40,118 nt of DNA. It comes from a phage. Shown one piece after another: positions 858-40,118 of the stretch; the first letter of the stretch is position 1; the number at the start of each line of letters is the position of its first letter. The translations under genes were made by a program, and so were the position numbers. Under the pieces are notes generated by a model that had not been told where the DNA came from, made no database searches, and saw only the letters and a list, made by a program, of their open reading frames with translations. The stretch is taken from sequence record PZ379598.1. The stretch is one strand, 5' to 3'.

Positions 858-2624
858 CTAGTGGAACGTAACGTATGCCCCTAGTCCAAGCTCGTCGTCC
901 GTATCGTGAGTTACCCGGACCCCATTGTCCCAGAACTCAGTGTGGATGGACTCGAAGCCTTTCCGTGGGTTCTCCATCTGTTCCTCCAGCCACTCCTCAG
1001 TGACTTCACGTTCTCCTTTGTTGGCATCCTTAGCCATAGACTCAACGAAGAACTGTACACCGATAGCCAGCGCATCAAGTCGGTCATCGTGTGCCAAGGC
1101 TCCACGTTCACGAGAGATACGTGTCATCTGGTAGAAGAGAGAGTAGATAGGGTTACGAACACCATCCTTATCAGAGGCCGACTGGTAGTCTTGGACGATA
1201 GCAGCAGCGTTAACGATAAGTCGGTGAGACCCCATGATAGGCTCCAGAACGTCACAGATGCGGAGTTCTTTCTGACCCTTACTCTTCACTTCAGTTACAG
1301 CCGCAGGATGGATACGGGCCGCTACAGGCTTGAATAGCTCAAGGTACATACCATCACCGAAGTTACCCTCAATGACGTATTCGTTGACCTTCCACTTACG
1401 ACCAATCTTAGCCAAGGCTTCCAGCGTAGAGTCTTCATAACCACCACGCATACCACCAACTTCCATAGCGAAGATGTAGCCGTTGAGCTGGTACAGTACC
1501 GCATAACCAGTTTCATCCTTACCACGACCACTAGGGTCAATGACCAGAATCTTCTGGGTGTACGAGCTAAAGGCAGAGCCTACAGTCTGATACGTGTGGT
1601 ACGAGTCACCCATGAGTCCAACGTTAGGAACGTCCTCACGCTTGTTCTGAGGGTTCGGCAACCATTGGTAGACCATTGGGCTGGACGCTGGGTCCAAGTC
1701 GGCTACGATAAGGTCACGGAGCTTCAGAGGGTACTTCTCGGCATCACTCAGGTTCGGGTTAAGCATGAACTGTAGAGCGAAGCCAGCTTTACCGTAGGAC
1801 AGCTCACGTTCCTTCAGGTCCGTATCATCGAAGCGTACTTCATCAGTCGGACGCCAGTAGAAGGACTCAGGGTCCTCTTCCAGCTCTGCCTGAAGCATAG
1901 GAGCCAGACGGTCGCCGTAAGACTGCCAGTCCTTCCTGTCGCGTGGATAACGAGCGGGCCAGATAGTAGTGGTGTACCCACGACCTTCCAGCTCACGGTA
2001 CAGGGTCATCTCGTTCTGAGGAGTACCCAGATAGATGATCGTACCTCCCGGCTTCAGGATAGCGTCGAACTCTTTCACAAGCTCTGATAGACGGTCTCGT
2101 GCAGCCTGAGTCGCTGAGTTGTTCGGAACCTCCACGTCATCGGCAATCAGGATGTCAGCACGACTACCAGTCAACTGACCAGTGATACCAACGGACTTAA
2201 CCGAAGGTGAGTGGTCTGGCTTGGCAGGTCCCACGTCGAAGCTGATAACCGCATCTCGCTGCCCCTGTTTAGGTTTGAGTTCCTGAAGCTGAGGCATGAG
2301 GTCGATGATTCGCTTGATGAAGATGGAGTTCGCATCGGCTCGTTCCTTTGAGGCCGACACAATCATGAACTTCAAGTCTGGGTTATTCCATAGCTTCCAG
2401 ACCACAAAGCCACAGGTCAAAAACGACTTGCCAATACCACGGAACGCCTGAAGGATGAAGCGGCGATTATCCCCAGCAGCCAGCTTCTTACACATATCTA
2501 TCTGGCAGCGGGTTGGAACCGGAAGACTTAGTGCTTTCCAGAGAACGAAGATGAAGAACACGAAGTCGTCCCTCATCCTTTGGACCATTTCTGCCTGTCT
2601 TTCAGCGGGTGTTTTCTTAGACAT
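858..2624 (-). CDS. gp19: Terminase large subunit (T7 gp19-like)
   Basis: 588 aa; near-colinear identity with recalled T7 gp19 ([58 protein letters not shown]). Confidence 0.95.
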
Positions 2625-3054
2625 ATAGTCCCTCCAGCATTAGGTCCCGGACAGCGATAGACTCCTCTAAAGTGGGACGTGTTGTTCGCATATAGGCATT
2701 CCCGCGTTTAACCTGAATCCTATAACCATTCTGGTGACGGGTAACGCACTTCACTCCTGTCTTAGAGTCATAATGGCTACCAGTATTCCAAGTGTTTTCA
2801 GCGGCAGTAACGAGCCGTAAGTTACTTAAGGTATTATTGCTAGGGTTCCTGTAGATGTGGTCTATTTGCATACCATGCGGTATAGGACCATTGGTTAGTT
2901 CCCATATCACACGATGGGCCCGCTTACTGCCTAGACTTCGTGTCTGTACTATCCAATATCCCATCCGACTTAATGTTCCCACAGGCTTTCCAGTCCTAAC
3001 GGAGACCAGACCGGATGGACTAGCCGGGTCCACTTTGTAGTAATCACTTAACAC
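2617..3054 (-). CDS. HNH homing endonuclease
   Basis: 145 aa with an HNH core ([41 protein letters not shown]); overlaps the spanin 3' end and the terminase start. Confidence 0.8.
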
Positions 3055-9900: not shown

Positions 9901-10855
9901 TCAGAGGGTCCACACCAGCGCCAATCACACCAGCGGCTAACTGAGCACCAGTCCCAGCCTTGGCCTTCTCTTGGTCCAACTTCTGGTTCTCAAGCGCCAA
10001 GTTAATAAGCTCGGTCAGGTTCTGAGGAGAGCCTCCAGTAATGACTCCGTAATACTGAGGCAAAACACCAGCGTTACGAATCTGGTCTAGCTCCTCACGA
10101 GACCACTTATGGTTGTTCCATCTGGTTGGGTTGAACACATCGCCAATGACATCCAGTGAGTCCTCAGTCTGACCAGCTCGTATAGCCACGCCGACCATAG
10201 AGTTCTTCACTTCAGCTTCTGTAGCCGCACCGAAACCGAACCACGTAGAGCGGTCCTCTTGCTCCTGCATGGTCTCTCCAGTAGCCTTATAGAACATCTC
10301 ACCGAACGATTCGTTGGGAGCTTCAGGTGCTTGACCATCAATGTTCAGACCAGCAGCGGTCGGAAGGTTCTCACCCAGAGCTACTTTAGGTTTAGCCTTG
10401 AGTCCTTCCGTGAGTGCGTCAAATACGTTAGCGCTTACTGGTGGAGTCTTTGGGCTAATGCCATTGAGTGCTCTTGCGACTCCCTTCTGATAGACTTCTG
10501 GGTCGTACCGGGAGCCTGTCTCATGGTAGCCGATAGCCTCAGACAGAGAGGCGAGGACATCATGGTTCGTCAGGTCGATACTTTGTGTTGCTGGAATACC
10601 AGTCGCAGCCACAACAGAGTTGATGTAGGACTGAGTGTCGTTCTCGCTCGGAGGTGCCCATCTGTTGATAATCTTCTCGATAGAGTCATAACCTTGGCGA
10701 CCGTAGCTTTGAAGGGTTTTCGCTAATGCTCTGACCCCAGATTCAGGACTGTCGAAGATAACGAATGCACCATCATCGCCTATAGCACCTTCCCACTGGT
10801 CTTTGGACTTACGGATATTGCCCGGATTTGCGTTCCTTACACCACGTGTTGCCAT
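6968..10855 (-). CDS. gp16: Internal virion (core/ejection) protein D (T7 gp16-like) with a divergent N-terminal domain
   Basis: 1295 aa; long colinear similarity to recalled T7 gp16 from about residue 185 onward (STWFGF, TRWN.H.W..EEL, VTGGSP.NL, VRSPTGMQSGASGK, MENPAIFG, NGDIAIMG.TGKTTK, RAMDLWR). The first ~180 aa do not resemble the T7 transglycosylase domain. Confidence 0.9.
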   Translation of the reverse strand: MATRGVRNANPGNIRKSKDQWEGAIGDDGAFVIFDSPESGVRALAKTLQSYGRQGYDSIEKIINRWAPPSENDTQSYINSVVAATGIPATQSIDLTNHDVLASLSEAIGYHETGSRYDPEVYQKGVARALNGISPKTPPVSANVFDALTEGLKAKPKVALGENLPTAAGLNIDGQAPEAPNESFGEMFYKATGETMQEQEDRSTWFGFGAATEAEVKNSMVGVAIRAGQTEDSLDVIGDVFNPTRWNNHKWSREELDQIRNAGVLPQYYGVITGGSPQNLTELINLALENQKLDQEKAKAGTGAQLAAGVIGAGVDPLTYVPIAGQVGKGGKLVNKMFTVAAQSGALAGVSEMARTSVAGGDAHVAEAILGGALFGGGMTAIADGLGRALGRNTNEFAGPATRLEARETARNVDGQDLSRLPIQEGEQTFSHQGVKFADVPNEPGSVRLEDGSILIGENPLNPKTRQVFDEVIEPERAAAGVNLGGLTEIGLKLLRSENPEIRGVAADLVRSPTGMQSGASGKIGTTASDVFERLRSVDHRFYNDIDDAVTEALKDPYFQTAFWRDSGAFRQDIYQRVSMAIEDGSGNLKAELTPGEMKVYDLLKNQFDAKREMMENPAMFGRPDAQSIFPGSHFKGTYVPHVYSKQMKELYIKELGSPEALQEAIKKSWLTSYASRPEVKKRVDEALLEADPTLTPEGLAAAVDKYANDKAYGISHTEQFERSSVMEENINGLVGLENNSFLEARNLFDSDMSIVLPNGQTFSVNNLREWDMDKIVPAYNRRINGDIAIMAGTGKTTKDMKDLVETMMNKAGDDGKLKGEVSTLRDTLKILTGRARRDGADDAAFATVMRTMTDLSFFAKNAYMGVQNLTEIGGMLARGNVRAMLHGVPIFRDLAFRNKKVGASEIKDLHNVIFGKELDDSIRPSKQDVIDRLRSYSDLSRGTATALGTAKYYTGELAVRSPFTKVLNGTTNYLLDAGRQGFLSDIVEHSLTGSKRKFDDRWLKTAGISDEQWSGIKSLIRESVTRGPDGKYTIKDKKAFSQDPRAMDLWRMGDTIADETLLRPHKLSNMDAKAYGPLAKTVLQFKNFVIKSINGRTMRTFYNATKNNRAIDAALSTVMSMGLAGIYYMAQAHVKAYAMQDGRDRDYLKQALDPTMIGYAALSRSSHLGGPLGVANILGGIAGYEDTKMLRSSILPRSPTEKPERAIAYGAATSDPVMNVVGNFLEQVPAFGYAANVGASAYNLAGYLKADTRVNERDYMTGMYNTLRELVPNDPITQKLLLGTFEEQGIHIKD

Positions 10856-11286
10856 GTCTTTCTCCTCAATATATTTCGTATGGAAACGACGCTTACCCCG
10901 TATAAGGTGGAAAGCTCAGATACTTTTAATGGACTGGAGCGTATTTCCCTAACAGATTCCTCTGTCAGTATAGCTCTGCCTGCTCCACTACCTCTTGCCT
11001 GTCGGCCTCTGGATACCTTATCTGCAATGTTGTCAGCCTGCGTTCCTACTTCAAGGTGTTCAGGATTTATGCATGATGGATTATCACATTTATGCCTAAC
11101 AACATAGCCATCTGGTATTGGCCCCTTATTTATGGAGTAGGAGAGACGATGTGCCATATACTTAACCCTAGCCACCATTATCCTTCCGTATCCTTCTCCG
11201 TCTAAGTGGCCTGTGAATCGGATACAGCCAGACTCTTCAGCTACTGACAGTTCTGCCAGTCTCTCACTGGCTGTCCCGTTCTTCAT
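10837..11286 (-). CDS. HNH homing endonuclease with C-terminal helix-turn-helix-like tail
   Basis: 149 aa; HNH core (GYGRIMV...HRLSYSINKGPIPDGYVVRHKCDNPSCINPEHLEVGTQADN); wedged between the gp15 and gp16 genes. Confidence 0.8.
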   Translation of the reverse strand: MKNGTASERLAELSVAEESGCIRFTGHLDGEGYGRIMVARVKYMAHRLSYSINKGPIPDGYVVRHKCDNPSCINPEHLEVGTQADNIADKVSRGRQARGSGAGRAILTEESVREIRSSPLKVSELSTLYGVSVVSIRNILRRKTWQHVV

Positions 11287-14657: not shown

Positions 14658-14677
14658 CCCTATAGTGATAGTTAAGG
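14658..14677 (-). promoter_or_regulatory. Phage RNAP promoter (phi13 analogue) embedded in a 12-bp inverted repeat
   Basis: Plus-strand CCCTATAGTGATAGTTAAGG, flanked by AAGGGCCTATAG (14645-14656) and its exact reverse complement CTATAGGCCCTT (14683-14694). Confidence 0.8.
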
Positions 14678-14701: not shown

Positions 14702-17059
14702 TTAGACGGAACGAGCTTTCTTAGCGTATGACGCCTCCCAGCCACACCCAACGATGGACACTGGGGTAGGATAGTCTGACTCTAAGGTTAGACTCGTGGT
14801 TAATGCGTTACCATTCATAGCGAAGCGATACTGACCATCCCCAATGTTGGTAGTCCCAATGGTCTGCTGACCAAGGGTGTACCCATTAAAGGTATTCACG
14901 AACTCCCGCTCACCGTTTCTGACAATGAGTCTAAGAGCGCCAGTGTCCTTGTAGTTGACCCAAGCCCGACGAAGTTGTAGACGACCAGTGTCTTCAGACT
15001 GAGTGCCGCTATCGTCTTCAATCTTAATCAGGAACCGTGAGAACTTGTAGGACATCAGATAAGACCGTCCTATGAACACTGTACGTCCTGACCAATCGCC
15101 ATTTAGTATAGCCACAGTTGAGATGTCTGTCAATTCACCAAGGTCCACGTAGGCACCCTGACTGTCAATAAGATAGTACCGACCGGGAGACGGAGCGTTT
15201 CCACCATAAGCAGAACCAATGTCAACCGTAGTCTTATAGGTGTCAACGTTGTATGAGCCAATTGGTATTACCATAGACACCTTGGAGTCAACGTGGAGTC
15301 TATATGGCTCTAACGGAAAGTCGGTTGCCTCCTTGATAAACTTAAGGTGCTCAAGGTCCACGCCGCCTTGGTGCTGACGAACAATGAACATGGTAGAGCC
15401 AATCGAAGCAGACGCCAGAATCTTATCAGCTTTAGGGAACTCCCAGTGCGACCAAGAGGCTTGAAGCTGTACGCCGTCCTTAAACAAGAACTTATAGATG
15501 TAGATTCGGTTGTATGCACCTGTAGAGTTGACGCAGATGTAGTTCTCAGTCCCTGTACCTTGAATGTCAAACACCCCGTTAGGGATATAGGACAGTACGT
15601 GACCAGTGGTATCATCGGCATCCTTCACGTCAGACACATCTGCTACAGCGAAGTATCGCTTAATGCTGGTGAATGACCCACGAGGAGCTGAGAAGAAGAC
15701 TGAGCGTCCTACAGCGAACGGTCTGGCATTATCTCCTAAGGCAAACTCTGAGCCTACATCAAGCTGGATAGACTTCGAGGTAAGCACCCCAGAGCTTGTC
15801 ATCACGAACTGAACCTCATCCGACCAAAGTAGTAGCTGCTCGCTAAACGGAACGGCATACTTAAGGATTGAGATTCGAGGGTGACTTACAGCTACATCAA
15901 TAGGGTCATCATCACTCAGTGTCGCCACACTCTTAGGGAAGAACGAAAAGTAGCTGGCTGAACGGCTCATGATTACGTTCTCGCCTGACAAGAACCCTAG
16001 CCTGTTCCTGTAGAAGAACACATCGTTAATCGTAGCATCCACGAAGCTAGGCATAGGGTTTGTGTCATCATTACCAGCACCACGCTTGGACCAGTCCAGA
16101 GTCTTGAACTCAAAGGAGCCGTCAGATTGTCTCACCAGAGCATGTGGCATTGTGGTGTTATCGAACCCAGTGACCACTCCCGGCTCTACTGTCTCCTTCC
16201 ACGTCTTAGTGTTGGAGTCGTACATCACGTAATATTCATCGGCGCTACTGTTGGTCTCACCTTGAATCTTAATGATGTACCCATTTGGAGCTGCAAGAGG
16301 CAACTTAGAGATTGTTTGCACCGTGTCGAGTACTGGGCTGATTAGCTGGTTAGCATAGCCATCCTCCGTCTCCACTGAGTTAATGTCAGTCCCTGAAGGG
16401 GCAGTGATTAACAGGAATCCAGACCCAAGGTCGAACGTGAAGGTAGGGTAAGCAGCAACAAGAAGGTCTCTCAGAGCTGCACCGATGGCTTGAGCGTCCA
16501 CCTTAGGTGGGTCATTCTCGGCATCATTACCTGCTGGTAGCTTATGCGAGACCTTAACGTCACCGTTGATTCCCACCTTAAGGGTTCGACCATACTGTCC
16601 GCCACGCAGGTTAATTAAAGCTCGTGCTTTGCGGTTATAACCAGAGTGTGACTTCTCGCTTCCACCTTTAACGACAACCTTACGGTTCACGATGAACGTA
16701 TAGTCTGCAACAGTAACGACACGGATGTCATCTCGCGGGTTGGACGACTTAACGTAGTCTACCGCACCGGAAACTGAGTATTGATTACCACTCAAGTCAA
16801 CTACCTGAATGTTTGACCCATTGAACACGATGTAATACTGCTCATGCTCGTCACGGTTAATCAGGTGGAACTTAGGGTTGCTCCCAACGTCGATGTTAAG
16901 ACGTCTCTTGAAGACTGTAGGTGGACGCTTCTGGAGTCCATCACTCTCGGATGACCAGCAGTTAACCTGTGCCTCGCCTTGGTCCGAGAACCTCAGGATG
17001 TCTGGCTGCTGGCTAATGCCACCTTTAAGGTTCTTGATTGATTGAGTAATTAGTGGCAT
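14702..17059 (-). CDS. gp12: Tail tubular protein B (T7 gp12-like)
   Basis: 785 aa; extensive identity with recalled T7 gp12 (SQSIKNLKGGISQQPDILR, GLQKRPP, HLINRDEHEQYY, ILKYAVPFSE, RLQLRRAWVNY, GCGWE). Confidence 0.95.
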   Translation of the reverse strand: MPLITQSIKNLKGGISQQPDILRFSDQGEAQVNCWSSESDGLQKRPPTVFKRRLNIDVGSNPKFHLINRDEHEQYYIVFNGSNIQVVDLSGNQYSVSGAVDYVKSSNPRDDIRVVTVADYTFIVNRKVVVKGGSEKSHSGYNRKARALINLRGGQYGRTLKVGINGDVKVSHKLPAGNDAENDPPKVDAQAIGAALRDLLVAAYPTFTFDLGSGFLLITAPSGTDINSVETEDGYANQLISPVLDTVQTISKLPLAAPNGYIIKIQGETNSSADEYYVMYDSNTKTWKETVEPGVVTGFDNTTMPHALVRQSDGSFEFKTLDWSKRGAGNDDTNPMPSFVDATINDVFFYRNRLGFLSGENVIMSRSASYFSFFPKSVATLSDDDPIDVAVSHPRISILKYAVPFSEQLLLWSDEVQFVMTSSGVLTSKSIQLDVGSEFALGDNARPFAVGRSVFFSAPRGSFTSIKRYFAVADVSDVKDADDTTGHVLSYIPNGVFDIQGTGTENYICVNSTGAYNRIYIYKFLFKDGVQLQASWSHWEFPKADKILASASIGSTMFIVRQHQGGVDLEHLKFIKEATDFPLEPYRLHVDSKVSMVIPIGSYNVDTYKTTVDIGSAYGGNAPSPGRYYLIDSQGAYVDLGELTDISTVAILNGDWSGRTVFIGRSYLMSYKFSRFLIKIEDDSGTQSEDTGRLQLRRAWVNYKDTGALRLIVRNGEREFVNTFNGYTLGQQTIGTTNIGDGQYRFAMNGNALTTSLTLESDYPTPVSIVGCGWEASYAKKARSV

Positions 17060-17068
17060 AGGCCCTCC

Positions 17069-17296
17069 TTAAATCATACTCATTAGGACGTATCCCTCAG
17101 CGATGTCACCAACGTCAGCAATGTGGACAACCTTACGTGCTACCTGTTGTCCAGTATACCCGTTGTCCCACTCATTCAGGATAAGCCAGTCGCCAACCTT
17201 AAAGTCCCGGTCGTTAAGTCTCAGCTCTGCTGTCTTTAGACCTAGTTGTACCGGACCAAAGTGCTGGCGGTGAATCTTCAGGTTGTGACTAGCCAT
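17069..17296 (-). CDS. DUF3850-like (ASCH/PUA-like fold) small protein
   Basis: 75 aa; pattern H.LKI...F..V..G.KT.E.R.NDR.F.VGD.L.L.EWD..YTG characteristic of DUF3850 proteins as I recall them. The start overlaps the gp11 stop by 1 nt; T7 has no gene here. Confidence 0.7.
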   Translation of the reverse strand: MASHNLKIHRQHFGPVQLGLKTAELRLNDRDFKVGDWLILNEWDNGYTGQQVARKVVHIADVGDIAEGYVLMSMI

Positions 17297-17862
17297 TAGT
17301 CCCTCCCGATGTCGGACATCATGTTGTAGCGACCAGTGTCCATCTCGTACTCCATCACCTGCTGGTAGAGTTCTGCTTCCTGCTCACGAAGGTACAGTTC
17401 AGACTCTGGGCTACCGAAGAACTTAGCGTTGAACTCACGGCTAGCCTTGGTAACGATGTAGTCACGGAATACTACAGGCATCTCAGCGAACGGTTTCATC
17501 TCCACCAGTTCGACTGTAATTGGTCCAGTGAAGGTCGTGGACTGAGTGGACAGGTCATAGAGATAGCCCCCCATGTTGCTGTAGTAACTGGTAGCACCAG
17601 CAGTCATGACCCGAAGGTAAGACGGCAGGAATCGAATCCTATTGTCTTGGACATCAGGTGTCAGGACAGCAGCTTCGTTGATGTTAAAGTTCCAGCCTTT
17701 AGCTTGGACCTGACGATTGACACGATGCAGGATACGTTGAGCGTTCGAGACGTCAGCGTTACCTTCGTCAAGCTGTAGGACTGCTGGTTCACCGATAGCT
17801 GCTAACATATCGTTGATGGCATCTAAGTCATCGTTAGCATTCAGTGGAATGTATTGAGCCAT
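17296..17862 (-). CDS. gp11: Tail tubular protein A (T7 gp11-like)
   Basis: 188 aa, immediately downstream of the Tphi-like terminator and upstream of gp12; size and position match T7 gp11. Confidence 0.85.
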   Translation of the reverse strand: MAQYIPLNANDDLDAINDMLAAIGEPAVLQLDEGNADVSNAQRILHRVNRQVQAKGWNFNINEAAVLTPDVQDNRIRFLPSYLRVMTAGATSYYSNMGGYLYDLSTQSTTFTGPITVELVEMKPFAEMPVVFRDYIVTKASREFNAKFFGSPESELYLREQEAELYQQVMEYEMDTGRYNMMSDIGRD

Positions 17863-17977
17863 AGGTTTACTCCTTAACGGTCATAGGCGCTAGACGGTGA
17901 GCTGGACAGCAGGTACGCCCAGAATAAGACGAATAGTGCTAACCCTGTGTAAATAAGGACCATAGTCCCTCCTTAAG

Positions 17978-18016
17978 CAAAAAACCCCTCAAGCACCCGA
18001 AGGCACCCAAGGGGTT
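17978..18016 (-). terminator. Tphi-like intrinsic terminator (for phage RNAP and host)
   Basis: Minus strand AACCCCTTGGGTGCC-TTCG-GGTGCTTGAGGGGTT followed by TTTTTG: about 15-bp stem with G-U pairs, UUCG tetraloop and U-tract; very similar to recalled T7 Tphi and in the same position after gene 10. Confidence 0.85.
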
Positions 18017-18020
18017 TCAA

Positions 18021-19339
18021 TTAGTTTGTGAAAGATACGTTGAAGGAACGCACAGGCGTACCGTCATACCCAACAATCACCAGACCTTCCACGCCAGAGG
18101 TGGCCTTGAAGTAGAGACTGTTGGTTCTACGGGAGTAGCTAACACCATCAGGCGTAGTCACCTCAAGCAGCGACCAATCGGTCACATCTGAAAGCTCAGG
18201 GAAGTCAACCTTCAGGCTGGTTCCCACCGTAGAACTATACGTCTCTAAGGTAGGACCCTCTGTAGAGAGGGCCTTAAAGGTCGTTAACCCGCTTTCGCCG
18301 CTGTGAAAACCAGTGCGCCTGCTGCTTCTGGACGCAGACCACCGTGACCCATAGCGTACTTACCAACAATCAGGTCGCCCTGAGCATCGACGTCACGGTC
18401 ACGTTCCAGCGCCAAGTCACGCAGCTTAACAGTACCTACAGCAGAACGGTGAGAGAACAGGCCCACAACGTTGTCCAGAGCAACTTTAACATCACCAGTA
18501 GCAGTAGCAGTAGCTGGGAAGGCGTGCTTCTGACCAGTCGCAATAGTGATACCATCGGCACCACGAGTTTCCCCAGCACCACCCTGAGTCAAGTGTGGAA
18601 CTTCAACAACCACGAAGCCCATTACGTTACGGATGTTACCAGTCTCTGGGTCAATCAGCGCAGCATAGTTAGCAGCGTTCGGCATCAGAGCCGCGAGGAT
18701 TGCAGAGTAGTTGTCCGGCGTGGTGTAGAAGTAACGGTCGCCAGCAGGAACGTAGTTGGATGTCAGCTTCGCACGAGCAATGGTCAGTTGACCGATGATT
18801 GCTTCACCCAGCTTAGCCGGAGTGTTCAGGTCTGCTTTAGTACCAACTTCCAGCACAGACGCTTTGCCAAGACCAGCGATGTTTTCATCAGATGCAGCCG
18901 GTAGGTTACACAGAATAGCCATCTCAGCCAGTACCGCACCATCGGCAGCGATAGCCAGAGCTTCGCCCAACTGGTTGGAGTACTCGCCAGCCACGTCATA
19001 GTGGTTCATCGCGTCTTCAATGTCGAAAATCATCACATCGGCAGTCAGCAGACCATCAATGGTAATCACTTTCTCGGTATGTTTGATACCTTTACGCTTA
19101 TCGGACAGTCGCTCACCCGGAGCCAGATACACACCAGAGGTGCGACCCATGACCGGGAACTGAGCAGACTTACCGTTCTGAATGGTACGGACAATATGCT
19201 TGTCAGCAGTTACAGAGCGGCGAGTGAATGCTGTCAGGACTTCGCCAGCAAAGACCTTCAGGAACAACGCCAGAGCGTCGGAACCAGATTTGCCTTTACC
19301 TTGGTCTGTACCAACTTTCTGACCCGGAACGTTTGCCAT
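18021..19339 (-). CDS. gp10B: Minor capsid protein 10B produced by -1 programmed frameshift
   Basis: The 10A frame contains G GTT TTC (plus strand 18305-18311) 8 codons before its stop, the same heptamer I recall for the T7 gene 10 shift site. The -1 frame is open from there to 18021, adding about 95 aa and joining the 68-aa track ORF 18021..18227. Confidence 0.7.
18284..19339 (-). CDS. gp10A: Major capsid protein (T7 gp10A-like)
   Basis: 351 aa; strong identity with recalled T7 gp10A (LALFLKVF.GEVLTAF, KSAQFPV.GRT, HTEKVITIDGLLTADV, NAANYAALIDPE.G.IRNVMGF, RSAVGTVKLRDLALER, KYAMGHGGLRPEAAGA). Confidence 0.95.
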   Translation of the reverse strand: MANVPGQKVGTDQGKGKSGSDALALFLKVFAGEVLTAFTRRSVTADKHIVRTIQNGKSAQFPVMGRTSGVYLAPGERLSDKRKGIKHTEKVITIDGLLTADVMIFDIEDAMNHYDVAGEYSNQLGEALAIAADGAVLAEMAILCNLPAASDENIAGLGKASVLEVGTKADLNTPAKLGEAIIGQLTIARAKLTSNYVPAGDRYFYTTPDNYSAILAALMPNAANYAALIDPETGNIRNVMGFVVVEVPHLTQGGAGETRGADGITIATGQKHAFPATATATGDVKVALDNVVGLFSHRSAVGTVKLRDLALERDRDVDAQGDLIVGKYAMGHGGLRPEAAGALVFTAAKAG

Positions 19340-19445
19340 ATGATAATTCTCCTATTCAATTGAAAGATAAAGTTTATTACTTACTGTATGCCCAATCCGT
19401 ATGGACTGAAGTAATAGGGAAACCTTGAGTCTTTCTCTTGGTCTC

Positions 19446-19463
19446 CCTATAGTGATAGTTTAG
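19446..19463 (-). promoter_or_regulatory. Phage RNAP promoter (phi10 analogue, strong class)
   Basis: Plus-strand CCTATAGTGATAGTTTAG; minus strand reads CACTATAGGGAGACC, and the leader begins with a GGAGACC...GGTTTCC stem-loop like the T7 gene 10 leader. Confidence 0.85.
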
Positions 19464-19465
19464 TC

Positions 19466-22027: not shown

Positions 22028-22276
22028 TTATATAGAAATACCGCCACCAGATGTACGAGAGACCTGAAGGCTACGCTTACCGGAGCGCTTCACTTTCTTC
22101 TCGTCAGATGCGGTTGTTTCAGTATCCACATCCTCCACTTTGTCGTTCGGTACTTCCACTGGTGCTGCTGGGGTCTGAGCCTCAACAACCTTAGGTGCAT
22201 CGTTAGAACCAAGACCAACGGTCCCTAAAGCACCTTTTACTACTTTACTGAAGGCCTTACTGATTGATTTACCCAC
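22028..22276 (-). CDS. gp7.3: Tail/virion protein (T7 gp7.3-like)
   Basis: 82 aa; MGK N-terminus and C-terminal KRSL.VSR.SGGGI.I as in recalled T7 gp7.3. Confidence 0.75.
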   Translation of the reverse strand: MGKSISKAFSKVVKGALGTVGLGSNDAPKVVEAQTPAAPVEVPNDKVEDVDTETTASDEKKVKRSGKRSLQVSRTSGGGISI

Positions 22277-22673
22277 GGTTAATCTCCTTAGTTGTTACGA
22301 TGTCTACCGACCTAGAAACATGCTTGACACGAGAATACCAGCCAAGACCCCAACGCTTGCACTCTTCGTCTATGATGTGTCTGACAGTCTCAAGAACCTT
22401 GCGGGAGGACTGCGAGTCACGACGAATAGCGACGATTGAAAGGTCAAGACCAGGAGTCGGTCGGTGCCAAGATGTGGTAGCCAGCATGTAGAGATACGCT
22501 ACTGGTTGACCTGAGACATCGTAGATTGTGTACTCTTCACCGTCGAACTCGTCAGCAATACGGTAAGTATGAGCCTTGAAGTCCTCGAATGACTTGAAGT
22601 TAGACTGCCCGTCTTCCCAGAGGCGACAGGCGCACATGTGGCGACCTTCGCGTGAGTTGAGATATGGTAGCAT
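22269..22673 (-). CDS. T7 gp7-position protein (host-range/virion protein)
   Basis: 134-aa ORF between the gp6.7 and gp7.3 homologues; positional assignment (T7 gp7 is 133 aa). Confidence 0.65.
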   Translation of the reverse strand: MLPYLNSREGRHMCACRLWEDGQSNFKSFEDFKAHTYRIADEFDGEEYTIYDVSGQPVAYLYMLATTSWHRPTPGLDLSIVAIRRDSQSSRKVLETVRHIIDEECKRWGLGWYSRVKHVSRSVDIVTTKEINRG

Positions 22674-23416: not shown

Positions 23417-24264
23417 AGGATGACCTCCTTGGACTTAGGGTCGTAGTCGGAGGCTCGGCAAATACGAGCTACCTGAGCTTGGACCAGAAGTTCCTCCTCG
23501 GTCATCCCAGCTTTAGCAGCCAGAGTCACCATGCAGTCCCACAGCGTCATGTCTTCACGCTTAGGATACTTCTTCCACTCAGTCTTAATCTGGCCTTTGT
23601 TCTTTCCAGTCTTAAGCTCACGGCTCTCCTGCACGAAGTAGTACGGCTCGTCAAGGAACGCACGAGTGGTGTCCTCACCCATCCCCAGAATCCCGCCGTA
23701 GCCATCTGTAGTGTCACCCTTGATGGTCTGCTCCATGTGCCAGTAGTCTGCCTCAGCAGTCGTATGACTCAGAATTTCACCAGTGGTTAACCAGAAGAAC
23801 TCACAGTTCGGGATGGTCTTGAAGTCCTTGTCACAGGACACCAGAACCGCATGGTCACATCCGACAATCTGAGGTCTGGTCCCGATGATACCCATACAGT
23901 CATCACCCTCAAGCGTTGGACGCAGGAAGCTGTTGAACCGTGGGTCAGCCATCACTTCGGCTACGAACTTCTTGTAACCTACAGGCTTGCGAGAACCCTT
24001 ACGGTTAGCCTTATAGGTAGGTAGGACGTCCTTACGCCAGTTGTAATCGTCAGTGAAGCACATCACAATCTTAGCGTCTTTCCACGCCTTGCGCTTCTTA
24101 ACGATTTCAGCGATGGTGTTCTCAAGGATACGACGAGCCTTTGCATGGTCGCAGATAAGGGTCCAGATGTCATCGCCCCAGTCAGTCTCGTCCTCGGCAG
24201 CAGCCATAGATGAAAACACTAAGTAGTCACCATCTAACACAAGAGCTATTTTCTTTTCGCTCAC
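23398..24264 (-). CDS. gp6: 5'-3' exonuclease (T7 gp6-like)
   Basis: Strong identity with recalled T7 gp6 (CDHAKAR.ILE, KAW, NWRK...YKANRK, KPVGY, LEGDD.MG.I, SCDKDFKTIPNC, TIKGD.TDGY.GI, LWDC, AKAGMTEE). Likely start is GTG at about 24264 (GGAGG 6 nt upstream, GTGA overlap with the gp5.7 stop); the track ORF extends to 24318. Confidence 0.9.
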   Translation of the reverse strand: MSEKKIALVLDGDYLVFSSMAAAEDETDWGDDIWTLICDHAKARRILENTIAEIVKKRKAWKDAKIVMCFTDDYNWRKDVLPTYKANRKGSRKPVGYKKFVAEVMADPRFNSFLRPTLEGDDCMGIIGTRPQIVGCDHAVLVSCDKDFKTIPNCEFFWLTTGEILSHTTAEADYWHMEQTIKGDTTDGYGGILGMGEDTTRAFLDEPYYFVQESRELKTGKNKGQIKTEWKKYPKREDMTLWDCMVTLAAKAGMTEEELLVQAQVARICRASDYDPKSKEVILWTPSM

Positions 24265-24470
24265 AGGCATCCTCCATGTTGGTTCAGGAACTTGGTGCCA
24301 GCAGCGGTAATCTCCCACGCACCGTTGTTACGCCCGTCCATAGACAGACAGCTCAGATGTCCACGACTCGCAGCCTCAGCCACCAGTGCCGCATTGTTGC
24401 GCACGTAGTTGGACTGGAAGGTCTTCGGGCAGGACTTAAGGGCCGCTAGGACCCGTAAGTATTCACTCAT
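24261..24470 (-). CDS. gp5.7: T7 gp5.7-like protein
   Basis: 69 aa; near-identical to recalled T7 gp5.7 (MS.YL.VL.A.KSCPKTFQSNYVRNNA.LVAEAASRGH.SCL...GRN.GAWEITA.GT.FL...GGC). Confidence 0.9.
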   Translation of the reverse strand: MSEYLRVLAALKSCPKTFQSNYVRNNAALVAEAASRGHLSCLSMDGRNNGAWEITAAGTKFLNQHGGCL

Positions 24471-24760
24471 TGCTTGACCTCGAATCGCAGGTTAGATACT
24501 CCGAACTGGTCATAACCAAAGTCGTCTACCAGCTCCTCCTTGATGGTCTTCTTGAGGGCAATTTCAAGGGCAGACTCAGGGCCTGACTCGATTGCGGTTT
24601 TGACCAGAGCCAACTGAAGACCATCCAGCTTCTCACCCTCAGCGTAGGCTTTAGTCATCTCAGCCAGTTGGCGACACATGGTATCTTCTTCCTTTGAGTT
24701 AACAACCATCTTCAGATCAAAACTCACACGAATACGTTTAGTAATAGCCATTAGTGACAC
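24467..24760 (-). CDS. gp5.5: T7 gp5.5-like protein (in T7, binds host H-NS)
   Basis: 97 aa; position and the N-terminal MA.TK...VSFD pattern match my recollection of gp5.5, with moderate certainty. Confidence 0.6.
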   Translation of the reverse strand: MSLMAITKRIRVSFDLKMVVNSKEEDTMCRQLAEMTKAYAEGEKLDGLQLALVKTAIESGPESALEIALKKTIKEELVDDFGYDQFGVSNLRFEVKQ

Positions 24761-25176
24761 TCCTTCTTAACAAGTTTGCGCTCACGGTTCGTCTTAATGA
24801 CGTGTTCGCGTTTTGTAATACACTGTAGATGCTCTATGTTGCAGCACCCACGGTTCAAGCACAAATGGTCTATTTCGTAGCCATTTGGTATAGGTCCGCG
24901 CTTCTGCTCCCACACCCATCGGTGGAACATGAAGGCGAACTTGTTGCCCTTCCTGTAGCTTCCCATGGAGTACCGGAAGTACCCATCTTGGTTCCTCTTG
25001 TGGGACACGCAGACGATACATCCGGTAGGCATGGTGTGGAAGCGTATGGTCTGGGTTCGAGGGTCAATGACACTCTTTCCACGTTGGTCCAATCTTACCC
25101 TCCGTATCAAGTTCACACTTGAAGTTATAGAAGCGTCCGACCTCGCGCATCGCCTCTTGAGCAATACGGACGACAT
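24751..25176 (-). CDS. HNH homing endonuclease overlapping the DNA polymerase 3' end
   Basis: 141 aa with an HNH core (CIVCVSHKRNQDGYFRY...FHRWVWEQKRGPIPNGYEIDHLCLNRGCCNIEHL); AGGAGA upstream of the ATG at 25176. The first ~113 nt overlap the polymerase C-terminal codons in another frame. Confidence 0.75.
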   Translation of the reverse strand: MSSVLLKRRCARSDASITSSVNLIRRVRLDQRGKSVIDPRTQTIRFHTMPTGCIVCVSHKRNQDGYFRYSMGSYRKGNKFAFMFHRWVWEQKRGPIPNGYEIDHLCLNRGCCNIEHLQCITKREHVIKTNRERKLVKKECH

Positions 25177-27235
25177 CTTCTGCTATCTCCTGAGTACGGC
25201 ACGCTATCTGCAATTCATCGTGAATCCAAGCCATTAGCGCAAAGTCGCCGTCCCATCCGTTACCGTAACCAGCCTCTTCAAGTTTCTTCTCAGTCAGTAC
25301 CATCCAGTGCTTACAGACAACCGCACCGTCCCCCTGAAGTAGGGCGTTAAGTGCTGAGTGTGGAGACCGGATGTGAATACGACGACCATCCAGACCTTTC
25401 AGCCAGCGACGTTTCCACTTGACGATATTCTCACCGTCCACCCACTTAGAGTCTGAGATTAACGTATTACTCACAGCTTCCCTGAGGTCCTTGATGGCTG
25501 GTGTACCCTCAATGAATTTCTTCATCAGAGCTGAACCTTCCTTCTTACCACCGCCTACTATCAGTCCAATCTTAGCGGCCCCTGCACCATACAGGAACGC
25601 GTAGATGAACGTCTTAGCGTTGTTACGGAAAGCCTCATGGTCGTGGTTAGACTTATCGCGTTGGACGTTAGGTGCTAACCCAGCGTTTACTGCGTTGGCC
25701 CAGTGGATGTCACCTTCTACCACAGTCTTCGCATATGCACCACCGTCAAACGGAGCCGCTCTGTTCCCAAGACAACGAAGCTCAAGACCTGAGGCATCCA
25801 CACCAACTTGAATCCAAGGGTCTGGCTTACCGTCCTTCTTGTTCCACGCTGCACCGAAAGCACCACGGCAAGTCTCACCATATGGAGCACCGTTAGCCGG
25901 GACCTGAGCCATGTTTGGTGAACTATGGGTCGCACGTCCGGTTACTGCCCCGCATGGGTTTATTGAGCCGTGCATACGTCCGTCTGGACCTACAAGTTTC
26001 AACCATGCGTTCTTACCTTCAGCAGCCTGACCGATGCGCTTCTGGACTACCAGGTACTCACGGACCAGCTCTACGCAAGCCTGAGCCTCTGCGTCTGGTA
26101 ACTTAACGTGTTCCAACGTCTCGTCATCGACTACAGGTTTCCCGGTGTCAGTGAAGTCCACAGGCTCCCAGCCACGCTCCATCAGAACTTTCGCTAAGTG
26201 GTCTCCGCTTCCCGGATTAAACTCAACGTAAGTGATAGGTGTGAACGGCGCTCCCTCCATCGTGTCTCGTGAGTCGAACTCGCAAGGCTCCAGACCTAAG
26301 CGTTGAGCTTTGTTCTTCGGCTTCTTGAATACTGACCCGACCTTCGGATACACGACTCGCGGATACTTCGGAAGGTCCTTGCCTGTCCGTGGGTGCTTGA
26401 AGAACTCCTTGCCTCCCTTTGGTGCGTACCAGCTGCCGAAAGTCGAACGCAGCTTGTCCAGCAGCTCTGCACGTTTGACGGTGAGTTCACGATATAAACC
26501 TTCGACCATCTCGGTGTTCATCGGATAGCCGTTACGCTCCATCTTCGCACAGGTCCACGCAGCATCATGTTCCAGACGCAACGCATAAATCTGGTCGAAA
26601 GCGAACTGTTCAGACTGGAAGTAATACTTGTCAGTCAGGAACTTCTTGAACAGCGCCAGCGTGACCACAACGTCTTGAACGTTATAGTCCAGCATCTCCT
26701 GAGACGGGAACATCCATTCGTCCCCAGCCTTATATTCGATACCTTCGGCCTTGCACTTGGCAACGTAATCGTGTTTGTACTCACCCTTCATCTCACCAAG
26801 ACGATAGCCCCAAGCCTCAAGAGACTGGCGTCCCATCATCTTAGGAGGCAGACGACCAGCTTTCACCGCGCCCATGTCTGAGAACTTAATGTTTGGATAC
26901 ATCAAGCGGCCTAGCACCAAGGTATCAATCATCTTGTGTTTCGGGAAGTTAAAACGTTTCCCAAAGTACAGACGCTTCAGCTTGTCTATAGCAGGGACGT
27001 CATAGTTGATACCGTTGTGAAATACCAGCATACCATCAGGCGATGCGGCAATCTCTTCAACTTTATGAACATACTCTTTGAAGCCACCGACGATACCGAC
27101 CATCGGAGCTACCCCATACTTAAGGGTCTCATTCGACTCGGCGTTAATCAGGACCCCACAGTGAAACTGGGAGACTGTATCAAGGAGACCGTTGGTCTCG
27201 ATGTCAGAACCCCAGATACTCTTAAGGTCAAACAT
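25064..27235 (-). CDS. gp5: DNA polymerase (T7 gp5-like, family A)
   Basis: Identity with recalled T7 gp5 (DIE.N.LL..V..FHCGV, FHNG..YDVPA, LEAWGYRLGEMKGEYK, DYNVQDVVVT, C-terminal LDTEGK.GP.W..CH). Start taken at internal ATG 27235 (GGAGGA 6 nt upstream); the track start at 27271 lies inside the upstream hairpin. Confidence 0.95.
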   Translation of the reverse strand: MFDLKSIWGSDIETNGLLDTVSQFHCGVLINAESNETLKYGVAPMVGIVGGFKEYVHKVEEIAASPDGMLVFHNGINYDVPAIDKLKRLYFGKRFNFPKHKMIDTLVLGRLMYPNIKFSDMGAVKAGRLPPKMMGRQSLEAWGYRLGEMKGEYKHDYVAKCKAEGIEYKAGDEWMFPSQEMLDYNVQDVVVTLALFKKFLTDKYYFQSEQFAFDQIYALRLEHDAAWTCAKMERNGYPMNTEMVEGLYRELTVKRAELLDKLRSTFGSWYAPKGGKEFFKHPRTGKDLPKYPRVVYPKVGSVFKKPKNKAQRLGLEPCEFDSRDTMEGAPFTPITYVEFNPGSGDHLAKVLMERGWEPVDFTDTGKPVVDDETLEHVKLPDAEAQACVELVREYLVVQKRIGQAAEGKNAWLKLVGPDGRMHGSINPCGAVTGRATHSSPNMAQVPANGAPYGETCRGAFGAAWNKKDGKPDPWIQVGVDASGLELRCLGNRAAPFDGGAYAKTVVEGDIHWANAVNAGLAPNVQRDKSNHDHEAFRNNAKTFIYAFLYGAGAAKIGLIVGGGKKEGSALMKKFIEGTPAIKDLREAVSNTLISDSKWVDGENIVKWKRRWLKGLDGRRIHIRSPHSALNALLQGDGAVVCKHWMVLTEKKLEEAGYGNGWDGDFALMAWIHDELQIACRTQEIAEDVVRIAQEAMREVGRFYNFKCELDTEGKIGPTWKECH

Positions 27236-29522: not shown

Positions 29523-29981
29523 TTAACCGTGGTCGGAAGTGACCAGTTCGTTAGTGTTAAGCCAGCGCTGCAAGTCGAAACTTGGGCAAGCCTTTGGTGC
29601 TACATCGTGGTGAGCCTTTATTTCTGCCTGAGGATACAAGTCCTTCAGGTCAGCCAGCTTGTTGCGCAGGGAGTTCATCTGGGCTGGAGTGAAGTTAGCT
29701 TCAAACTTGCCCTTAGCGTCAATTCCACCTACAAGGCAGACGCCTACAGACCGTGAGTTCCAGTCCTTAACGTGTGACCCTACGACATTGACAGGGCGTC
29801 CCTCTTCCACAGTACCATCGCGCTTGATGATAAAGTGGTAGCCTACGTCCAGCCAGCCTTGCTGCTTGTGCCACATACGGATGGTCTCTACCCCGATGTC
29901 CATCTCTGGCTTGGTAGCCGAACAGTGAACGAAGATAGCGTCGGTCCGGGACCGTGGATTGAACTGTACCTTACTTACCAT
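29523..29981 (-). CDS. gp3.5: Lysozyme / N-acetylmuramoyl-L-alanine amidase (T7 gp3.5-like)
   Basis: 152 aa; near-identical core to recalled T7 lysozyme (VQF..R..TDAIFVHCSATKP, QGWLDVGYHFIIKRDGTVE.GR, GVCLVGGID.KGKF.ANFTPAQM, HH.VAPKACPSFDL.RW, NELVTSD). Confidence 0.95.
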   Translation of the reverse strand: MVSKVQFNPRSRTDAIFVHCSATKPEMDIGVETIRMWHKQQGWLDVGYHFIIKRDGTVEEGRPVNVVGSHVKDWNSRSVGVCLVGGIDAKGKFEANFTPAQMNSLRNKLADLKDLYPQAEIKAHHDVAPKACPSFDLQRWLNTNELVTSDHG

Positions 29982-30465
29982 TGTACACCACCAATTCTAC
30001 GACAACCAGATTCAGGTGCTGGGTGAAGCGTTGTGCGTCCGTGGTGTGCATCTGGAGATGCTTATGGTTGAAGACGTGTGAGTTGCTAATCTTCACGTAA
30101 ACTTCTTCAGGCTTTCCATGGACGATGAACGTCTGGCCTACACCAATCTTGTCGATGGTCAGGACTTCACGCTTCAAAGTCACAGGCGGTACGCTCGAAG
30201 CTGGCAGGACTTGAGTGGTTTGGACACCAGTGAGTTTCTCTTCCGGCTTGATTTCCTCAAGTTTCCAATTAAGGACCCATGCTCCCCACATACCATCAGG
30301 CTGAGTATTGCATCCGTTAGACCCATGTTTGTATGCGCCTGGAGTCTGGCACTCAACTAGGGTCATTCTTGAATCTGGTACGGGGTCATTCTCACACTTG
30401 GTAACTATAGTCCCACTAGGCCAGCCATGCGCATCTACTAACAGTTTAAACTTCTTGCTCATCAC
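29971..30465 (-). CDS. Hypothetical protein (164 aa) inserted between endonuclease I and lysozyme
   Basis: ORF with an ATGA start overlap on the gp3 stop and an 11-nt overlap with the lysozyme start; no motif I can assign; T7 has no gene at this junction. Confidence 0.65.
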   Translation of the reverse strand: MMSKKFKLLVDAHGWPSGTIVTKCENDPVPDSRMTLVECQTPGAYKHGSNGCNTQPDGMWGAWVLNWKLEEIKPEEKLTGVQTTQVLPASSVPPVTLKREVLTIDKIGVGQTFIVHGKPEEVYVKISNSHVFNHKHLQMHTTDAQRFTQHLNLVVVELVVYNGK

Positions 30466-39967: not shown

Positions 39968-40118
39968 AGACCAATAGTCCCTGCCTATCGTCCTTCCCTA
40001 AGCCATAGCCACAACCTATCGTTGACCTGAAGTCTTGACCATCGGTCTAACCTTATGATATACTGGGGTAGGGCCTTTGGTCTGGACTGAAAGATGGCCT
40101 ATGGGGGACTTGAGGTTC
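39968..40118. repeat. Direct terminal repeat, copy at window end
   Basis: Identical to bases 1-151; the repeat may extend beyond the window edge. Confidence 0.9.

Follow-up and report, generated by a model that had tools for sequence, protein, structure and literature searches.

Gene 11.05 of a Kayfunavirus phage: an accessory gene between the tail tubular genes that encodes a minimal ASCH/PUA-like protein of the DUF3850 family

We identified the 75-aa open reading frame between the two tail tubular genes of this T7-like phage as gene 11.05, a known and annotated accessory gene of Kayfunavirus whose product is a minimal ASCH/PUA-like beta-barrel that stands alone and belongs to the DUF3850 family. 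As a sequence feature the gene is ordinary and presents no anomaly, and comparison with related genomes shows an accessory gene that is conserved among Kayfunavirus phages and can yet be dispensed with. Regarding its function, we tentatively propose, with a probability of about 0.4 and by analogy with ASCH enzymes, that this small protein hydrolyses, or at any rate binds specifically, cytidine that is N4-acylated or carries a similar modification.

The window, i.e. the whole stretch of DNA that was analysed (40,118 bp), is a complete T7-like genome in reversed orientation, with the T7-like genes on the minus strand. It carries a perfect 151-bp direct terminal repeat (1-151 and 39968-40118), which indicates that the window is the whole linear genome. 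As a whole it was assigned to Kayfunavirus (Autographiviridae, Studiervirinae), the genus in which its close relatives are classified, and Escherichia phage vB_EcoP-U8 is 99.4% identical to it over the 1.4 kb tested. The gene and its immediate surroundings comprise the following features:

17069..17296, minus strand: gene 11.05-type CDS, ATG start, 75 aa, 8.5 kDa, pI 6.4
17296..17862, minus strand: gp11, tail tubular protein A (gatekeeper), the upstream coupling partner (PF17212 Tube, E=6e-46)
14702..17059, minus strand: gp12, tail tubular protein B (nozzle), the downstream gene (PF25675, E=0, 1096 bits)
17301..17307, minus strand: Shine-Dalgarno sequence GGGAGGG of gene 11.05, inside the last gp11 codons (GGG AGG G..)
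17060..17068, minus strand: 9-nt spacer GGAGGGCCT from the gene 11.05 stop to the gp12 ATG, carrying the gp12 ribosome-binding site

The product of the gene is MASHNLKIHRQHFGPVQLGLKTAELRLNDRDFKVGDWLILNEWDNGYTGQQVARKVVHIADVGDIAEGYVLMSMI. An earlier, sequence-only reading of this DNA had noted the ORF at 17069-17296 without giving its strand; the ORF is real and lies on the minus strand, and the plus-strand ORFs that run across the same region (56 and 38 aa) found no support. That reading had also claimed translational coupling to gp11, and the junction GGGAGGGACTAATG bears this out: in the pentamer TAATG (17298..17294) the last A of the gp11 TAA is the first base of the gene 11.05 ATG, and the Shine-Dalgarno sequence lies 5 nt before this ATG, within the end codons of gp11. 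Given the stop overlap and the position of the Shine-Dalgarno sequence, translation of gene 11.05 is coupled to that of gp11. Ahead of its ATG, the frame of gene 11.05 is free of stops over 29 codons, which prompted the idea of a gp11-11.05 fusion produced by -1 frameshifting. However, no slippery heptamer of the form X XXY YYZ occurs in the last 29 codons of gp11, and the idea was rejected as unsupported. In T7, as had been stated, nothing is annotated between genes 11 (24228-24818) and 12 (24842-27226), which are separated by 23 non-coding bases only.

Three further elements bear on how the gene is transcribed:

19445..19464, minus strand: phage-RNAP promoter copy of repeat family D1, the phi10 equivalent, upstream of gene 10
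17986..18003, minus strand: T-phi-like hairpin and trailing T run, found by terminator scan, upstream of gene 11 as T-phi is in T7
14658..14677, minus strand: phage-RNAP promoter copy of repeat family D1, the phi13 equivalent, downstream of gene 12

Repeat family D1 amounts to 12 promoter copies in the genome (reverse complement CCTAAACTATCACTATAGGA). The copy at 19445..19464 is the nearest promoter upstream of gene 11.05, no other copy of the family lies between 14677 and 19445, and the copy at 14658..14677, as predicted from the sequence, closes the transcription unit that holds the gene. The T7 layout for comparison is phi10, T-phi, 11, 12, phi13. From the arrangement of these elements and from T7 we infer that gene 11.05 is part of the late (class III) transcript together with genes 11 and 12; given that the T-phi-like hairpin stands upstream of gene 11, genes 11, 11.05 and 12 would be reached by read-through. 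Directly after this hairpin and before gene 11 lies a hydrophobic 29-codon ORF (17874-17963, minus strand; MVLIYTGLALFVLFWAYLLSSSPSSAYDR), which resembles a single transmembrane helix, is preceded by a strong Shine-Dalgarno sequence (AAGGAGGGACTATG) and goes under 'hypothetical protein' in the records of some relatives (PP889465, MZ234024), with no Pfam or PHROG match. Between the major capsid gene and the terminator there is a 68-aa ORF (18021-18227, minus strand) that matches phrog_7473, a function-less label, and is called 'major head protein' in one record; it may be a separate-gene stand-in for the T7 10B extension.

The motifs from which the ORF had been assigned to DUF3850 and ASCH are all found in the protein (H4-N-L-K-I, N28-D-R-D-F-K-V-G-D36 and E42-W-D-N-G-Y-T-G49), and profile searches agree with the assignment. 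PF12961 (DUF3850) matches with E=1.9e-19 and 70.1 bits, residues 4-73 aligning to model positions 2-76 of 77, and PF04266 (ASCH, PUA-like clan) matches with E=1.4e-5 and 26.2 bits over model positions 2-61 of 103 only; both matches are significant and exceed the Pfam gathering scores (22.9 for DUF3850 and 21.2 for ASCH). The outcome that the sequence-only reading had named as refuting its assignment, a lack of profile matches, thus did not occur. A domain scan of the product returned these two families only, with no nuclease or recombinase domain, and an NCBIfam scan returned no match. PHROG 986, named 'RNA-binding protein', matches at 2.8e-35, a label that is itself a computational prediction. 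Structure prediction, which had been suggested as a check, gave an AF2 model with a pLDDT of 97.1 from a 56-sequence alignment, and its fold agrees with that of PDB 3IUW (Enterococcus faecalis EF_NP_814290), the sole solved DUF3850 relative (E=1e-10, and 5e-25 with the profile). The latter is a bacterial or prophage structural-genomics protein deposited as 'activating signal cointegrator', and provides a fold but no mechanism. A flexible catalytic loop at residues 21-30 was considered on the basis of a pLDDT of 61 with a 22-sequence alignment, and was discarded at a pLDDT of 96 with 56 sequences.

The protein contains the semi-conserved ASCH octapeptide GxKxx(E/T)xR in its 'GKER' form, G19-L-K21-T-A-E24-L-R26, followed by N28-D29-R30. 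A DUF3850 profile search collected 16,175 cluster representatives at E<=1e-3, and in the wider family approximately half of the proteins have extra, heterogeneous domains. K21, E24, R26, D29 and R30 are invariant among 150 DUF3850 representatives, and H4, L6, K7, G19, N28, G35, D36, E42, G49, Y69 and V70 reach a conservation of 90% or more in both the 56- and the 150-sequence alignments. The window protein has every one of these residues and conforms to the DUF3850 core H.LK...G.K..E.R.NDR...GD...E...TG...GYV.LS.

A 728-nt query spanning the slot was covered to at least 80% in about 164 phage records; gene 11.05 is present in roughly 80% of the Kayfunavirus-like records, and in 144 records the protein passes a threshold of 95% identity, with values of 96-100%. 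Metagenomic T7-like contigs, whose proteins are 67-77% identical, keep both the slot and the gp11 overlap, and a Pectobacterium phage has a homologue in the same slot, again with the overlap. The dN/dS of the gene is 0.06-0.25 at a dS of ~1-3, next to 0.03-0.22 for gp11 and 0.04-0.23 for gp12, and these ratios show purifying selection. Low dN/dS together with the same slot in ~164 records and in metagenomic relatives shows that this is not a chance ORF. Moreover, 22 Kayfunavirus-type sequences, the most divergent of them 47% identical, retain every family-invariant residue, and the base composition is fully ameliorated (GC of 0.487 for the gene vs 0.499 for the genome).

About 42 close relatives, including K1F, SH4, IME278 and Esher6, are without the gene, and their junctions are of two types. 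In the K1F type (K1F and about 13 records) gp11 ends GGG AGG GAC TAATG, and gp12 starts where gene 11.05 would. In the SH4 type (about 28 records) gp11 ends GGT CGA GAC TAA, followed by T-AGGAGGTGAT-ATG (SH4, locus positions 1740-1770, and IME278 compared with window 17296-17310); GGT CGA encodes the same Gly-Arg as GGG AGG but forms no Shine-Dalgarno sequence, and gp12 uses the separate AGGAGGTGAT site. The choice of synonymous codons at the end of gp11 therefore goes with the presence or absence of a gene start that overlaps the gp11 stop. Aligned with K1F and Vec13, the window carries exactly 237 bp that K1F lacks, i.e. the CDS plus the 9-nt spacer, flanked by an imperfect 12-13-nt ribosome-binding-site repeat, GGAGGG(A/C)CT(A)ATG; a K1F junction query hits gene-carrying genomes in two pieces, with a span of 308 nt vs 71 nt. 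In the gp11 tree there are three gene-lacking lineages, each nested among gene-carrying ones, and the gp11 of IME278 is 97.5% identical to that of a gene-carrying relative. This nesting implies that loss, gain or recombinational replacement happened three times or more. Since the K1F type retains the gp11 codons that bear the Shine-Dalgarno sequence, its junction is probably a secondary deletion, and the SH4-type junction could be either ancestral or a replacement that has spread. In Enterobacter phage B1 (ORF table of PMC12785254) a 75-aa ORF40 overlaps the gp11 stop and an extra hypothetical ORF41 of 158 aa precedes gp12; the junction of genes 11 and 12 can thus hold additional cargo.

GenBank records already label the product as a DUF3850 domain-containing or RNA-binding protein (Vec13 gp42, LM33_P1, vB_EcoP_F and others), and the name gene 11.05 comes from the record of Citrobacter phage CR44b. 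The copies in CR44b and other Kayfunavirus phages share with the window gene the slot, the TAATG overlap and an N-terminal MASH. Nevertheless, the CR44b protein (22053-22277) is only 45% identical to that of the window and, unlike it, has lost N28-D29-R30 (N-D-R to S-I-P) and carries E24D, while its slot, its overlap and its second half (GDWLI..EWDNG.TG.QV.RKV.H) are kept. This variant is a singleton among 163 records. The sequence-only reading had called the presence of such a gene in the structural operon unexpected. This holds insofar as T7 has no counterpart, but the gene is a standing and annotated feature of the genus, and non-structural genes are common in the structural operons of T7-type phages. 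Indeed, the second of three homing-endonuclease genes in this genome lies in the structural operon:

2617-2964, minus strand: HNH_3 homing-endonuclease gene, between the terminase and an Rz-like gene
10837-11286, minus strand: HNH_3 homing-endonuclease gene, between gp15 and gp16, in the structural operon
24751-25176, minus strand: HNH_3 homing-endonuclease gene, beside the DNA polymerase gene

On the reading that we prefer, gene 11.05 would encode a non-tail protein that is made late and acts in the cytoplasm of the infected cell, as an enzyme for a modified pyrimidine or at least a binder specific to it. Its most probable chemistry would be that of the 'GKER' ASCH proteins, in which K21 and E24, together with R26, would hydrolyse the N4-acyl group of cytidine (ac4C), the candidate substrate being ac4C in tRNA or as a nucleoside or nucleotide in free form. 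A substrate choice specific to DUF3850 could then be due to the invariant D29 and R30. The pay-off might lie in salvaging nucleotides, in retuning host tRNA or in undoing a host acylation.

The analogy has two branches. The first leads to YqfB, the E. coli N4-acetylcytidine amidohydrolase, whose catalytic residues are K21, T24, R26 and E74 (PMC9599836). Using hhalign and hmmsearch, K21, E24 and R26 of the window protein fall onto K21, T24 and R26 of YqfB (G19-R-K-T-I-T-I-R26), but the similarity to YqfB/ASCH is marginal (hhalign probability of 21%, profile E-values of 0.14-0.44), and BLASTP of the product against YqfB gave no alignment, so that the link is made by profile and fold only. YqfB (PDB 1TE7, 9KYF) has Thr24 and Glu74, whereas the window protein has Glu24 and no counterpart of Glu74: the alignment ends near YqfB residues 49-56 and the protein stops at residue 75, and the complete YqfB catalytic set (Lys21, Thr24, Arg26, Glu74) is accordingly absent.

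The second branch, the GKER-type ASCH proteins (T. thermophilus TthASCH, PDB 2DP9; human EOLA1; the TRIP4 ASCH domain), is closer, with the beta-barrel and G-x-K-x-x-E-x-R in common. A 2026 preprint reports that 19 ASCH proteins of the GKTR and GKER types strip ac4C from tRNA, and that neither the Lys nor the Glu can be spared in TthASCH, EOLA1 and TRIP4 (10.64898/2026.02.27.708502, from the same laboratory as the YqfB paper). This activity is contested, as an earlier study, cited in the same preprint, detected no action on ac4C by the GKER proteins ZmASCH, TRIP4 and EOLA1. The essential pair of the GKER type, K21 and E24, is present in the window protein and is invariant in its family. Differences lie in size and in the residues that follow the octapeptide: GKER ASCH proteins have 110-160 aa with extra C-terminal elements, while DUF3850 has ~75 aa and adds the invariant D-R. 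The assayed ASCH enzymes span 103-160 aa, and the window protein, at 75 aa, is without their C-terminal third. No DUF3850 member is among the 19 proteins of the preprint, which makes no mention of phage, 3IUW or Enterococcus.

The slightly acidic product (pI 6.4) was counted in favour of an enzyme. To our knowledge, YqfB-type enzymes show no nucleic acid binding in gel shifts. On the other hand, ac4C in E. coli is virtually confined to position 34 of a single tRNA, and so little of the mark counts against a clear benefit to the phage. The CR44b copy, with its loss of N28-D29-R30 and its E24D, likewise speaks against the enzyme reading, singleton though it is. A bolder version of the enzyme reading, namely that the product of gene 11.05 is smaller than any other ASCH enzyme known and is the first phage eraser of an acyl mark on RNA or nucleotides, which would strip N4-acyl groups from host tRNA or nucleotides, we regard as improbable. 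If true, a late-made eraser would retune decoding or cancel an acylation-based stress or defence response of the host, and it would provide a chemistry for a family of more than 16,000 representatives scattered over phage accessory regions. Gene 11.05 would be a clean test case, given that it is a bare 75-residue DUF3850 in a tractable T7-like phage with natural, isogenic-like relatives without the gene. Likewise, the claim of ac4C deacetylation by ASCH proteins becomes testable on a large, phage-enriched DUF3850 family.

Homologues in other genomes occupy diverse positions. A lambdoid Erwinia phage has its homologue behind the replication genes, in the nin region; in Kagunavirus the homologue lies within a run of small genes, and in P2-like phages it follows gene A. 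Among the four nearest neighbours at 74 viral loci outside Kayfunavirus we found no recurring partner, the 290 proteins falling into 205 clusters of which the largest has 6 members. Those neighbours that match Pfam include DnaB, lambda P, NinB/H/X, SSB, RdgC, Dam-type and C5 methyltransferases and DUF551, and none of them is a tail protein. With the other homologues away from tail genes, the slot between tail genes is peculiar to the Kayfunavirus group and says little about function. Prophage-encoded fusions of ParB-CTPase and DUF3850 that are enriched in phages and lie beside parA have been described, one of which binds CTP (PMC12704722). They share with the window protein the DUF3850 module, the association with phages and a cytidine-nucleotide theme; however, they are two-domain proteins adjoining parA, while the window protein is a bare domain with neither ParB nor ParA as a neighbour.

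Instead of a catalyst, the protein could be a non-catalytic reader, its PUA-like pocket binding RNA or a modified DNA or RNA base as YTH, EVE and SRA domains do, and acting late, with transcripts of the phage or the host, tRNA or methylated progeny DNA as conceivable targets. We consider such a reader unlikely, though to be taken seriously. The net acidic charge (pI 6.4) speaks against it, the 'RNA-binding' label rests on prediction, and five invariant charged residues within 75 aa, including the ASCH Lys/Glu pair, look more like an active site than like a binding surface.

Another explanation is counter-defence, in which the protein would hydrolyse or sequester a nucleotide-derived signal, or reverse the modification made by an acetyltransferase-type toxin. 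The distribution of the gene would suit such a role, being patchy, with three or more independent events of loss or replacement and yet strong selection where the gene is present, and so would the occurrence of a stand-alone module without a fixed partner in the accessory regions of unrelated phages. Moreover, ASCH genes accompany GNAT-EVE operons (PMC7641849), and the authors who described the ParB-DUF3850 fusions speculated on an anti-defence role for these (PMC12704722). Late expression from late-entering DNA of the T7 type is nevertheless poor timing for a first-line inhibitor. PADLOC yielded only a partial match of 14 bits to PDC-M07B (E=0.007, 34 residues), which we take as noise, and two phage accessory-gene screens do not mention ASCH, PUA or K1F. 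Overall, we think a counter-defence role rather doubtful.

A passenger, neutral or selfish, is another option: the gene would do nothing for the phage and would stay as a small cassette that is hard to delete cleanly between two essential, coupled genes. The clean 237-bp unit bounded by GGAGGG(A/C)CT(A)ATG repeats would fit this, as would the other cargo taken up by the slot (the 158-aa ORF of phage B1) and the dispensability of the gene in about 42 relatives. A passenger would hardly be expected, however, to show a dN/dS as low as that of gp12 (0.06-0.25), to keep its invariant residues in 22 sequences down to 47% identity, to have an ameliorated base composition (GC of 0.487 vs 0.499) and to be served by gp11 end codons that are recoded to give its Shine-Dalgarno sequence. 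We therefore hold this explanation to be quite improbable. A homing-endonuclease or otherwise self-mobile cassette was rejected: the product has no nuclease or recombinase domain, the flanks consist only of the 12-13-nt ribosome-binding-site repeat, and the HNH genes lie elsewhere.

Finally, a tail component or tail-assembly chaperone, which the position between gp11 and gp12 might suggest, is very unlikely, given that K1F, SH4, IME278 and about 40 others have near-identical gp11 and gp12 without the gene, as T7 and T3 also lack it, that homologues at the other loci compared never adjoin tail genes, that ASCH matches score far above hub matches, and that the CR44b record carries virion mass-spectrometry notes on gp11 and gp12 and none on 11.05, which is weak evidence for so small a protein. 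Virion proteomics was sought for other gene-carrying Kayfunavirus phages, and the papers on BD523 and Pkp-1 contain no virion mass spectrometry; for phage B1, only six large proteins were identified, from gel bands (PMC12785254), which leaves the notes of the CR44b record as the one usable source.

Other features of the genome deserve a brief mention. An ARAGORN search over the whole window returned no tRNA; the record of the near-identical U8 lists a tRNA-Thr (36843-36921) that separates the primase/helicase gene from a small ORF. Flanked by the genes for endonuclease I and amidase is a 163-aa ORF (29971-30462, minus strand) that has no Pfam match and matches only phrog_16385 and phrog_15211, both function-less labels; it is another accessory gene of the lineage.
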